A stretch of DNA of 64,000 bases from an uncultured bacterium (GTDB lineage Bacteria > Patescibacteriota > Patescibacteriia > Magasanikbacterales > UBA922), in contig CALMAY010000037.1 of the NCBI GenBank assembly GCA_937861125.1, positions 4,941-68,940 on the forward strand, written 5' to 3'. Below, in pieces: positions 271 through 15,283 of the stretch (position 1 is the stretch's first letter; each line of letters begins with the position of its first letter). The notes under the pieces were generated by a model. It worked only from the letters and a program-made list of their open reading frames with translations, ran no database searches and was not told the origin of the DNA. Position numbers and translations under genes: made by a program.

Positions 271-1575
271 TTATACTAACCACGTCCACACTCCCCACAG
301 TACCATACCGCCATAGAACAATGAACACAACCAAACAAGAGGAGTAACATATCGTGGACGTGTATATTCTGGTAACTGCTTGTTGAGACGCAGCAAAAGT
401 GGAGGGTATATCGCCATCACAGCCGCCGAGATGACTGCAGAAATATGCAAAAGCGATGCAGGCTGATTGAAGCCAGGAATAATTGCTGCGCACAATAATA
501 TCAATACACCGATACTCCCCACTCGCATTGATAGCTGTTCATGTGAAAGTGATGTAGACATACACCGTTTCAACAAACGCCCACATGCATCCAAAATAGT
601 CATCTGCGCCATCAAAAAAACAAAGAACACACCTAAACTAAACGCGGTGCCCAGATATGGCATAATCATATTAAGTGCATCCACTTCATAGGCAATCACA
701 CCAAACCCTTTGACTGATGCACCCGAGAGGAGTAGTACTGCCAATACAGCCAAAAAACCGATACCAACTACATTTCCGATAATAAAAAGGAGAGAATGCT
801 CAAGACGAACCAAACGCCACCACGACTGCCAGTTCGCACGAGTGTCGGCATGACTCCAATCTATATGTTCTGGTGTATCGTGCATGGATGCACCATATTG
901 CCTACTCATGATCCAATCACTTTGTACGAGATTAAGCACTCCTGCTACACCACCATAGGCAAGCGCAGCAATAAAGGCGACACTGTCACTGGATGCAGGA
1001 AACCACGATCCATTCTGTATTGACTCTATCACTGCATTGAGAGAAAAAATATGTATCACAGCATAAAACACGACACCGAGTACCAAAAACAATCCTACTT
1101 TTGCAATTCCCTCAATCCGTGCGTAACTCTGTTTGCTTTTCCACAAAAATAACAGTGCTACGAGTAATGCGGCACTCACCCATGCTCCATACTCCCCTAC
1201 ACCAAGCCCATATGCAAGCGCGTTCCCCGCAGTAGAAATCCAGGCTGGCCAAACCAGAGAGATCGCAATCACAGCAGGAAAAAAATATCGCACCCACGGT
1301 GCCAAACCAATCAAACCAGAGACGGTGTTTTTTCCTGTCACAATAGTGTAGCGTTCGATCTCGATGTTTACTACATACTGCAGCACCAACACCAGTGGCA
1401 CAAACCACATAATTGTCAGACCATACCGTGATACGAGGTCAGGCCATAATAATAATTCACCACCTGAGAGCGAAAGAGCAACAAATAAAAATGATGGGCC
1501 GAGCATCTGCAGAAGTGATTGGGTTGGTTTGGTGAGGATCATATAGAAAAACGGTTGACTATTAACCATTGACAA
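271..1575 (-). CDS. polytopic membrane transporter, NRAMP/MntH-like (APC fold)
   Basis: 434-aa ORF with about 11 hydrophobic segments. The N-terminal pattern LGPSFLFVALSLSGGELLLWP...YG...W...LQYVVNIEIERYTIVTGK resembles the NRAMP-related family (COG1914). The exact start is uncertain. Confidence 0.5.
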   Translation of the reverse strand: MSMVNSQPFFYMILTKPTQSLLQMLGPSFLFVALSLSGGELLLWPDLVSRYGLTIMWFVPLVLVLQYVVNIEIERYTIVTGKNTVSGLIGLAPWVRYFFPAVIAISLVWPAWISTAGNALAYGLGVGEYGAWVSAALLVALLFLWKSKQSYARIEGIAKVGLFLVLGVVFYAVIHIFSLNAVIESIQNGSWFPASSDSVAFIAALAYGGVAGVLNLVQSDWIMSRQYGASMHDTPEHIDWSHADTRANWQSWWRLVRLEHSLLFIIGNVVGIGFLAVLAVLLLSGASVKGFGVIAYEVDALNMIMPYLGTAFSLGVFFVFLMAQMTILDACGRLLKRCMSTSLSHEQLSMRVGSIGVLILLCAAIIPGFNQPASLLHISAVISAAVMAIYPPLLLRLNKQLPEYTRPRYVTPLVWLCSLFYGGMVLWGVWTWLV

Positions 1576-7667: not shown

Positions 7668-7696
7668 AGTGTACCTGTGGATAAAAAAACTGTCAA
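7668..7696 (-). promoter_or_regulatory. sigma70-type promoter of the trmB-like/HAD/glmU/glmS operon (near-leaderless)
   Basis: The minus strand reads TTGACA-N17-TACACT. The -10 box ends 9 nt before the ATG at 7659. The -35 box lies in the left arm of a perfect 10-bp hairpin (AAAAACTGTC/GACAGTTTTT, 7685-7715). Confidence 0.55.
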
Positions 7697-10763: not shown

Positions 10764-10835
10764 ACAAAAAAAGAAAAAAATAATCTATGCAAGAATATAC
10801 CACAGTACATCTTCTAAATAAAGAGAGAAAGTGTG

Positions 10836-10900
10836 GATAAATAGACAAATAAATATTGATGTATGACACACAAATACATATATATGTGTCACACATCAAT
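10836..10900 (-). terminator. probable terminator of the 23S-5S operon
   Basis: 16-bp stem (ATTGATGTATGACACA 10855-10870 with TGTGTCACACATCAAT 10885-10900, one mismatch), followed on the minus strand by ATTTATTTGTCTATTTAT. Confidence 0.5.
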
Positions 10901-10933
10901 TATTATTTTTTACAAAAGAAAAAAGACACAGAA

Positions 10934-11041
10934 TCTGGGCGCTGACCTACTCTTGCCTTGCGACTACCATTGGCGCTGACAGGCTTAACTGCTGTGTTCG
11001 AGATGGGAACAGGTGGACCCCTATCGCAAAAAGCACCCAGA
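10934..11041 (-). rRNA. rrf: 5S rRNA
   Basis: The reverse complement reads UCUGGGUGCU...CCACCUGUUCCCAUCUCGAACACAGCAGUUAAGCC...GGUAGUCGCAAGGCAAGAGUAGGUCAGCGCCCAGA. Helix I is a 10-bp terminal pairing. Flanking sequences extend the stem. Confidence 0.93.
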
Positions 11042-11140
11042 TTCTATGTCCTTTTGAGACGTAGAAATGTGATGAAATGAATACGTATTTAAGGAAGTGT
11101 TTTTCGTTTCTTTCAGTGGTACATTGGAAAAGCACAACTT

Positions 11141-14168
<3,028 letters not shown>

Positions 14169-14390
14169 CAATTGTGCTTCGTAAGTGCTTTTATCTGCGC
14201 TTAAACAGATAAAAAGCGCTTCGTTGTACTATATGCTTCCCCACCATAGGAAAACAATATAGCTGCATTTTTTATACCCTAATTTGTTTCTTTAAATACG
14301 TATTCAATTGTAATGGTCAATCAGATTCATTCATCACAGTGTGACTACAACGTGGTTGTAAGAACACTGTGAGAAACGAGGGTGAGAAAC

Positions 14391-14605
14391 AAAAAACCGC
14401 TTTCCAAGCGGCCAACAACGAGTGTGGGCATTATCTGCTTGGGCAAAGTCTTTGGTATGCTCTTGATATAGACATTGTAATAATGTGTCAATTGAGAGTA
14501 ATGACTCCCATATGGAGTCGCATACCAGAGGTCCGATGCAGCAGTAATGCTTATTAGGACATGGCCTCGCAAGAGCGAGGAGATGTGCACTCAATTTGAA
14601 TGCTC
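14391..14605 (-). ncRNA. structured RNA of unknown class (stand-alone sRNA or terminated rRNA-operon leader)
   Basis: Bounded by a consensus promoter (14610-14638) and a hairpin CCGCUUGGAAAGCGG plus U6 (14391-14411). Internal helices include CCUCGC-UCUU-GCGAGG, GACUCC-AUAU-GGGAGUC, and CUCUGGUAUGC/GCAUACCAAAG. ORFs called here lack any coding support. Confidence 0.5.
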
Positions 14606-14609
14606 CGCA

Positions 14610-14638
14610 ATAGTACACGAGTTTATAATCGTTGTCAA
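14610..14638 (-). promoter_or_regulatory. consensus sigma70-type promoter
   Basis: The minus strand reads TTGACA (14638-14633), a 17-nt spacer, then TACTAT (14615-14610). Confidence 0.65.
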
Positions 14639-14668
14639 GAAACTATCTGTGGATAACATGTGAGATGT

Positions 14669-14761
14669 CGTATACGAAGGCTTAAGAGGCTTAAAAAGCT
14701 CAAAAGGCTTACATATAATTTGTACATTTTAGCCTGTTAGGCCTCTTGGGCTTTTTAAGCC
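14669..14761. repeat. long imperfect palindrome, family B copy 1
   Basis: Left arm GGCTTAAAAAGCTCAAAAGGCTTAC, right arm TTAGGCCTCTTGGGCTTTTTAAGCC. It shares the head GTATACGAA..GGCTTA and the core TAGGCCTCTTGRGCWTTTTAAGC with 27970-28078. Confidence 0.8.
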
Positions 14762-14812
14762 AAAAAAGTTTCTCCTTGCGCCCCACACCACTGTCCTGTA
14801 TAGTGAATATAT

Positions 14813-15283
14813 ATGATAAAAATTACCCTCATCACCCTCGGATCGCTCAAAGAAACGTACTGGAAAGAAGCGGAAAAAGAGTATCTCAAACGCCTGAATT
14901 TATATGTCAAATTTCAACATATAGAACTCAAAGAAGAACGTTTTTCTGATTTACATGAACGAGAAACAGTTCGTATTACTGAAGCACAAAAAATACTCAA
15001 AGTGCTCCCTAATGATTGTTATTTGATTGTACTCGACGAACGTGGCAAAGAGATGGATTCACCTGCGTTTTCTAAGCTATTATTTCATACTATTCCACAA
15101 GGTACACATATTGTGTTTGTCATCGGCGGACCACTTGGATTTAGTGAGGAAATAAAAAAGAAAGCACGGTTACTGCTTTCTTTTTCTCAGTTCACATTTC
15201 CGCACCAAATGATACGCACTATTTTACTCGAACAGATATATCGTGCTGGGACGATTGCACATGAAAAGCAGTACCACTACTAG
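14813..15283 (+). CDS. rlmH: 23S rRNA (pseudouridine1915-N3)-methyltransferase RlmH
   Basis: 156-aa SPOUT protein. The start MIKITLITLGSLKETYWKEAEKEYLKRL, then FVIGGPLGFSEE and the C-terminal FPHQMIRTILLEQIYRA, fit RlmH. Confidence 0.9.
   Translation: MIKITLITLGSLKETYWKEAEKEYLKRLNLYVKFQHIELKEERFSDLHERETVRITEAQKILKVLPNDCYLIVLDERGKEMDSPAFSKLLFHTIPQGTHIVFVIGGPLGFSEEIKKKARLLLSFSQFTFPHQMIRTILLEQIYRAGTIAHEKQYHY

Follow-up and report, generated by a model that had tools for sequence, protein, structure and literature searches.

A conserved structured leader RNA with an intrinsic terminator, a candidate transcription attenuator of the unlinked 23S-5S rRNA operon in a small clade of Patescibacteria

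The 23S-5S rRNA operon analyzed here is headed by a leader unit in whose sequence we observed a promoter, a folded and covarying RNA, an intrinsic terminator and a processing stem, in an order that is conserved in relatives. We tentatively propose, giving it somewhat less than an even chance, that this leader is a clade-restricted, riboswitch-like transcription attenuator of the unlinked operon. The operon lies in a stretch of 64,000 nt of DNA from an uncultured bacterium, designated here the window.

Organization of the 23S-5S locus

No 16S gene occurs within the 64-kb window and the 23S-5S operon is, thus, unlinked. Unlinked 16S and 23S genes are frequent in Patescibacteria and in several other phyla (bioRxiv 10.1101/705046). 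The leader is flanked on its upstream side by the divergent gene rlmH, coding for a 23S methyltransferase, and the 5S gene is followed by a gene for a small acidic protein and then by glpX and a class I aldolase gene. The deduced GlpX shows 60–66% identity to proteins named as from Patescibacteria, Magasanikbacteria and Uhrbacteria, and RlmH shows no more than 48% identity to any species representative, with the top match in a Parcubacteria genome. The locus of the window is also present on long metagenome contigs in ENA. The features of the region are as follows, with those of the leader RNA given in the direction of transcription.

14813–15283, plus strand: rlmH (23S methyltransferase), upstream of the leader and divergent
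14648–14656, minus strand: TTATCCACA, perfect DnaA-box consensus, 10 nt 5′ of the leader −35
14638–14610, minus strand: leader promoter TTGACA-17-TACTAT, from a consensus scan
14587–14603, minus strand: hairpin SL1, GCAUUCA-AAU-UGAGUGC, 81% of cells paired
14565–14580, minus strand: hairpin SL2, CCUCGC-UCUU-GCGAGG, with a variable stem
14525–14564, minus strand: conserved core CCAUGUCC...GGACCUCUGG, from the cross-type comparison
14540–14550, minus strand: 5′ strand of helix Pa (GCAUUACUGCU), with its partner at 14439–14428
14454–14526, minus strand: Pb domain, closed by GGUAUGC/GCAUACC (14526–14520 with 14460–14454)
14428–14439, minus strand: 3′ strand of helix Pa (AGCAG-A-UAAUGC), overlapping the 5′ arm of the putative antiterminator
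14404–14442, minus strand: alternative antiterminator stem-loop, a predicted pairing
14391–14413, minus strand: intrinsic terminator, 8-bp stem, GGA loop and U6 tract
14335–14371, minus strand: hairpin after the terminator, CACAGUG...CACUGUG with inner ACAAC/GUUGU, an inverted repeat
14153–14306, minus strand: 5′ strand of the 23S processing stem, outer arm UGAAUACGUAUUUAA (14306–14292) and inner arm (14180–14154)
14161–11146, minus strand: 23S rRNA, part of the 23S-5S unit (10934–14161)
11078–11156, minus strand: 3′ strand of the processing stem, 23S 3′ end and 23S-5S spacer
11040–10934, minus strand: 5S rRNA, downstream of the 23S
10832–10840 and 7676–7684, minus strand: other copies of TTATCCACA, exact consensus matches

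The 23S gene (window 11146–14161) spans 3016 nt against 2925 model positions, and the first 259 model positions of the 23S occupy 347 nt in the relative L012 (1–347), indicating an expansion of ca. 90 nt in the 5′ domain of the 23S. Directly after the 5S terminator there is a large palindrome, AATTGATGTGTGACACA...TGTGTCATACATCAAT (10855–10901, minus strand), which adjoins a TTATCCACA box.

Leader units in related genomes

Relatives were defined as contigs encoding close homologues of the flanking proteins RlmH and GlpX, and the comparison set comprised six distinct leader sequences (the window, L012, L014, L015, L038 and L040), corresponding to roughly three independent types. Conservation and covariation upstream of the 23S were looked for in related genomes and found in five other lineages. 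All units share the same order, consisting of TCCACA boxes, a near-consensus promoter, the motifs CCAYGUC...GACCUCUGG, a covarying long-range helix and a terminator.

The window type is represented by the RlmH relatives L012 and L013 (88% identity) and L014 (68–72%), which carry the whole unit 5′ of rlmH. A core of ca. 100 nt is identical among them, with diverged flanks and peripheral stems, and includes GGACCUCUGGUAUGCG, CAUUAUUACAAUGUCUAYAUCAAGAGCAUACC, CAAGCARAUAAUGCC and the terminator. The short type was found in the GlpX relatives L038 and L040 (81–82% identity), with the gene order rlmH, leader, 23S, 5S, small ORF and glpX. The leader is here ca. 150 nt long and contains two TCCACA boxes, TTGACA-17-TACAAT, CCAYGUC, a 7-bp hairpin, GACCUCUGG, a 9-bp long-range helix and the terminator. 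L015 is of an intermediate type, mixing features of the other two, and has a gene for a Rim-type acetyltransferase between the leader promoter and rlmH.

A covariance model built on the window type (R1) matched L015 with E = 0.006–0.02 and missed the L038 leader, also when run unfiltered; the link with the short type therefore rests on position and orientation, on the architecture and on two invariant motifs. The pattern CCAYGTC-N5-45-GACCTCTGG occurs solely in these leaders among 385 kb of compared sequence. We found no second copy of the leader in the window, and pattern scans of the JGI metagenome collection returned no matches and then 17 chance matches devoid of any core motif. A genome collection queried with RlmH yielded relatives with up to 48% identity, none of them adjoining rRNA genes, and most RlmH relatives with 55–61% and 92% identity are not beside a leader or a 23S gene, L015 being the exception. 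From these sequence searches, the leader RNA family appears to be restricted to a small clade.

The closest RlmH relative (92%), from L019, has a membrane-protein gene 5′ of rlmH (1–240) instead of the leader and the 23S, indicating that the rlmH neighborhood reorders quickly in the clade. The contigs of three independent lineages (L013, L014 and L015) end 20–50 nt past the leader terminator, a possible effect of strains having rRNA-proximal sequence in common or of the boundary of a repeat.

The leader promoter and its upstream boxes

The TTGACA-N17-TACTAT promoter of the original prediction is present and matches 10 out of 12 consensus positions, with a perfect −35 and four out of six positions in the −10. 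It is the sole promoter-like site on the minus strand between positions 13900 and 15400, and transcription would start near 14604–14602. A G+C-rich stretch, TGCGGAGC, is situated 3′ of the −10. With its near-consensus hexamers and the G+C-rich stretch past the −10, the leader promoter resembles those of rRNA genes, and this stretch might, by analogy, correspond to a discriminator. The equivalent promoters are TTGACA-17-TACTAT in L012, TTGACA-17-TACAAT in L038 and TTGACA-17-TAGAAT in L015.

A TCCACA or DnaA-like box 5′ of the leader promoter is kept in the six leader loci, with diverged flanks. The box is double in L038 (5977–5995) and L040 (3121–3139), and L015 contains three degenerate TCCACA boxes (about 263–225, minus strand). 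There are three copies of TTATCCACA in the window, against 0.9 expected, and all three fall within promoter-like regions of minus-strand transcription units, namely those of the 23S leader, of the gene for the acidic protein after the 5S and of a TrmB-family gene, where the copy lies within the spacer of TTGACA...TACACT. TTATCCACA may be a site for DnaA or for another regulator. GC skew gave no sign of a replication origin in the window.

The region between the leader promoter and rlmH (14677–14761) contains 9-nt periodic repeats, AAGGCTTAA, GAGGCTTAA and AAAGCTCAA, which make up a 24-nt inverted repeat with 88% complementarity and gave weak microRNA-like Rfam matches. This block is present in L020 and absent from L012 and L014.

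Structure of the leader RNA

The window had been predicted to contain a densely structured, non-coding RNA of ca. 215 nt, running from promoter to terminator just upstream of the 23S, and this description was borne out, its class still lacking a match. The RNA folds with −69.3 kcal/mol, compared with −50.6 ± 4.2 kcal/mol for shuffled sequences (z = −4.4), and none of 200 shuffles folded as well. The three helices named in the prediction are all there, namely a 6-bp helix capped by UCUU (14580–14565), a 6–7-bp helix capped by AUAU (14519–14503) and an 11-bp long-range helix with one bulged A (14550–14540 with 14439–14428). Likewise, no ORF is conserved: frames of 94 and 81 amino acids are interrupted by stops in L012 and L014, and a pseudo-protein derived from the six frames of three window-type RNAs found no matches with E ≤ 10.

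SL1 is retained in L014 and lost in L012; three pairs of SL2 have changed on both sides, and this hairpin is present in L015 and missing from L038 and L040. In the core, CCAYGUC and GACCUCUGG are invariant in the six leader sequences. Helix Ha is formed by GUCC/GGAC around a small hairpin (AGCA-UUAC-UGCU) and changes from GUCC/GGAC to GUCU/AGAC, its fourth pair being C-G in four of the six sequences and U-A in the other two. The 11 pairs of Pa are 100% paired in the window type, with one of them appearing as C-G, U-G or U-A, and formation of Pa excludes the inner hairpin of Ha. Helix Pb begins right after the invariant CUCU and encloses hairpins Pc (14519–14503), which has three pairs with changes on both sides, and Hc (ACAUU-AUUAC-AAUGU, 14486–14472). 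All seven pairs of Pb can form in the six sequences and five of them covary, its versions in the three types being GGUAUGC/GCAUACC, GGAGUAA/UUACUCC and GG-UUG-GAC/GUC-CAA-CC.

Overall, 93% of cells are paired in the window-type structure and eight pairs have changed on both sides; neither value was reached by any of 500 shuffles, and sliding the partners left 33–39% of cells paired. Covariation across types was counted on a manual register, since neither MAFFT nor Infernal aligned the shared helices of the different types in register. These comparisons indicate that the leader RNA family is a genuine structured RNA. The hairpin following the terminator (14335–14371) is conserved in L012, and L038 and L040 have a hairpin of unrelated sequence in that place.

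Terminator and alternative pairing

The predicted terminator is present as GGCCGCUU-GGA-AAGCGGUU (14413–14395) with a run of six U (14396–14391), its hairpin having −9.2 kcal/mol, and there are equivalents in L012, L014, L015, L038 and L040. An alternative pairing, hereafter the antiterminator, is predicted between CCAAGC (14442–14437) and GCUUGG (14409–14404), which comprises the terminator 5′ arm and loop. This stem stacks on a hairpin designated Hx (14429–14411), and its basal pair, C-G in the window as in L014, is replaced by U-A in L012. In this alternative fold, the 5′ strand of Pa would fold back on itself within Ha, and CCAAGC, which overlaps the 3′ strand of Pa, would be available for the pairing.

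Five of the six leader sequences can form an antiterminator of nearly equal energy, supported by a few compensatory changes; a convincing one was looked for and not found in L015. At the decision point, on completion of the terminator 5′ arm, the energies of the two folds are within ca. 1 kcal/mol of each other in the three window-type sequences and 1–3 kcal/mol apart in L038 and L040. The minimum-energy fold of the truncated transcript contains the antiterminator in L012, L014, L038 and L040, and Pa is still preferred in that of the window. In the short type, GUUC situated 3′ of Pb has two possible partners, a GAAC in the Ha hairpin and another in the terminator arm, and the three substitutions by which L038 and L040 differ leave both alternative pairings intact. 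Each of these alternative helices shows one or two compensatory events, among six sequences of about three independent types, and complementarity of 6 nt to a terminator arm is not an uncommon chance event.

Transcription of the 23S gene through the leader

The 23S gene follows the terminator wherever the contig extends that far (the window, L001, L002, L012, L038 and L040). As had been noted for the window, there is no other good promoter for the 23S: in the window, L012 and L038, nothing promoter-like was found in the region from the terminator to the 23S. The 15-nt sequence that had also been described as complementary to the 23S-5S spacer (11092–11078) is real, with its leader arm at 14306–14292, ca. 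6 nt away from the position first given. This arm opens the 5′ strand of the processing stem, which starts 85 nt past the U tract in the window and ca. 73 nt after the terminator in L038. The stem of the window contains 54 intermolecular pairs, with −129.1 kcal/mol compared with −91.2 ± 3.2 kcal/mol when the spacer was shuffled, and those of L038 and L040 contain 61 and 59 pairs, respectively. Between the window and the short types, the outer arms show no relationship in sequence, and within each type they are complementary.

Weak hexamers downstream of the terminator, TTGACC-16/17-TATTTA(A) near 14322–14294 in the window and CTGACA-18-TATAAA in L038, scored below the limits of the promoter scan. 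As both are covered by the 5′ strand of the processing stem, initiation at either would yield a transcript devoid of the outer 15–25 bp of the stem, and the precursor has to originate farther upstream. The lack of a downstream promoter, together with the upstream reach of the processing stem, suggests that the 23S precursor most likely arises by read-through, and we consider it probable that the 23S is made through the leader terminator. A promoter outside the sigma-70 consensus could be hidden downstream.

In L012, an insertion of ca. 80 nt sets the terminator apart from the 23S leader, showing that the leader unit is separable from the latter. Within this insertion (about 575–655, minus strand) we found a hairpin, UUCAUAGC-UCG-UGCUAUGAA, together with a short direct repeat, CCCUGAGYGA, and no promoter-like site.

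Searches for known families and motifs

An Rfam scan of positions 14100–15000 with E ≤ 10 gave no family for the leader, in agreement with the failure of the original prediction to place it in a class; the only matches were to the 23S 5′ end and chance matches of microRNA-like type. Rfam scans of L012, L014, L015 and L038 gave no family either, with gathering or with permissive thresholds. No boxA (GCUCUUUAACAA-like) was found with up to three mismatches on the minus strand of 14150–14640, using the E. coli consensus, which a divergent boxA could escape.

Several candidate identities were examined and rejected. A boxA candidate in the SL2 loop, CGCUCUU, is not conserved in L012 or L014. The only recurring AUG, in CCAUGUC, is ACG in L015 and L038, and we discarded a leader peptide. 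As to pairing of the leader with the 23S or 5S, the sole long complement falls in the non-conserved SL2, and the conserved core has no significant complementarity to either rRNA. A 9-nt identity, ACCUCUGGU, with helices 96–97 of the 23S is at chance level as evidence of mimicry and is not maintained in L038 and L040, whose 23S has CUCUAG. Likenesses to T-box, SRP and 6S RNAs noticed by eye gave nothing in Rfam scans.

Comparison with known systems

The leader resembles transcription attenuators and riboswitches in that a structured domain right after the promoter leads to an intrinsic terminator, a predicted competing helix would overlap the terminator 5′ arm as well as the helix closing the domain, and peripheral stems vary with compensation around invariant junction sequences. 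However, the genes downstream of the leader are rRNAs and not an mRNA, there is no match to a riboswitch or leader family in Rfam, and the three types differ considerably in the domain, more than is usual for an aptamer that binds a metabolite.

As with the boxB-boxA-boxC leaders served by Nus factors and SuhB, the unit comes after an rRNA promoter and before both the leader strand of the processing stem and the mature rRNA, and precedes a long untranslated transcript for which the polymerase has to be kept from terminating. It differs from them in the lack of any boxA-like sequence found here, in a structured part that far exceeds a boxB hairpin and in the canonical intrinsic terminator that it contains and that described rRNA leaders, to our knowledge, lack. 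The put sites of phage HK022 and the EAR element of Bacillus likewise have a promoter-proximal folded RNA and then a terminator to be passed for a long operon, although the likeness is one of gene order alone, with no detectable similarity of sequence or fold; we know of no association of put or EAR with rRNA operons.

6S and other housekeeping small RNAs share with the leader a size of 150–215 nt, a strong promoter and a terminator of their own, and high conservation within a clade. Nevertheless, the leader lacks the 5′-3′ closing stem and the central bubble of 6S RNA, being composed of local hairpins and a branched domain, and has no Rfam match to 6S, SRP, tmRNA or RNase P. The 23S-methyl RNA motif of Lactobacillales, attributed to Weinberg and co-workers in 2010 and to Rfam, is said to occur in the 5′ UTR of a methyltransferase gene, on the same strand. 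It resembles the leader in being a structured RNA with a terminator that adjoins a 23S methyltransferase gene, here rlmH, whereas our leader is transcribed away from rlmH, toward the 23S, and is without an Rfam match.

Alternative explanations

The original prediction offered two readings, an independent small RNA or an rRNA-operon leader with a terminator to be overridden by antitermination. The second is now favored, since the arrangement recurs in relatives, no downstream promoter was found and the processing stem begins upstream of the weak hexamers, although its Nus/boxA component is unsupported, as there is no boxA-like element. The first, an abundant small RNA acting in trans with a housekeeping or regulatory role, the 23S being then transcribed from a weak or unconventional downstream promoter or by leakage of the terminator, is in our opinion unlikely. 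A canonical promoter and terminator do bracket a discrete unit of 150–215 nt in the six sequences, sequence conservation is very high in the window type, the insertion of L012 makes the unit physically separable from the 23S leader, and there are promoter-like hexamers downstream in the window and in L038. Yet these hexamers fall short in the scan and are embedded in the 5′ strand of the processing stem, Rfam returned neither 6S, SRP, tmRNA and RNase P nor any other family, the fold is not a 6S-like rod, and the unit was seen only near rlmH or the 23S among the handful of loci examined. That the promoter- and terminator-like sequences arose by chance in an ordinary rRNA leader, whose folded part would have no specific function, deserves hardly any credence. 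Shuffled sequences do average 4.6 promoter-like and 0.9 terminator-like sites in a region of this size, but this reading is contradicted by the comparative data: the whole unit is conserved in relatives while the surrounding intergenic DNA has diverged, the helices covary and the folding z-score is −4.4.

The folded RNA could instead act constitutively in cis, making its own polymerase resistant to terminators and Rho in the manner of put and EAR, or with the help of a protein. Such a polymerase would get past the terminator of the leader and transcribe the long rRNA with high efficiency, and the terminator would then only filter out unmodified complexes; in a variant of this idea, the leader merely aids folding of the 23S. 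We judge this explanation, including its variant, to be rather improbable, if slightly less so than a small RNA acting in trans. The order of promoter, structured RNA, terminator and long untranslated genes matches that of put and EAR, there is no boxA to recruit NusB/NusE, the core motifs are invariant across types, as a binding surface would be, and the 23S apparently depends on read-through. Against it, the leader is similar to put or EAR in neither sequence nor structure and has no Rfam match, its core is not significantly complementary to the 23S or the 5S, and the existence of nearly isoenergetic folds with compensatory changes would be left unexplained.

A model for attenuation of the 23S-5S operon

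We infer from the sequence comparisons that the 23S is probably transcribed by read-through and, more tentatively, that termination is regulated in accordance with a two-state model. In this putative mechanism, polymerase would start at the single strong promoter (14638–14610) and transcribe the folded domain, consisting of CCAYGUC, helix Ha, GACCUCUGG, helix Pb and hairpin Hc, to reach next the intrinsic terminator (14413–14391). The leader would by then adopt one of two mutually exclusive folds. If Pa forms, the terminator would be left free, so that transcription would stop and a leader RNA of ca. 215 nt would be released. If Ha persists instead, the 3′ strand of Pa would pair with the terminator 5′ arm as the antiterminator, and polymerase would continue through the processing-stem region into the 23S and 5S genes. 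The conserved domain might be the sensor in this process, responding to a small molecule, to a protein or to the speed of the polymerase.

Synthesis of rRNA is the main cost of ribosome production. Model bacteria regulate it at the promoter and rely on the Nus/boxA system to safeguard elongation. Patescibacteria have tiny genomes in which the 16S and 23S are no longer co-transcribed. A leader with an intrinsic terminator is of a well-known kind, and its position at the head of an rRNA operon is not a known one, as far as the literature searched shows; we know of no regulated intrinsic terminator described within an rRNA leader. A bolder form of the proposal, possible but in our view doubtful, is that the riboswitch-like attenuator in the unlinked 23S-5S leader would be the first RNA switch acting directly on rRNA synthesis, sensing some signal linked to growth (for instance nucleotide pools, an alarmone, a ribosomal protein in free form or the speed of the polymerase) and setting the 23S/5S output in Patescibacteria.

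Also under the rival explanations, the leader would define an unclassified family of structured RNAs with covariation support. The terminator before the 23S and 5S genes suggests a previously undescribed gate on ribosome production and, if the 16S gene had the same leader, this would hint at co-ordination of the two unlinked operons. A leader gating entry into the 23S-5S operon would offer a concrete handle, testable in vitro without culture, on how the balance of 16S and 23S subunits is kept in organisms with unlinked rRNA genes.
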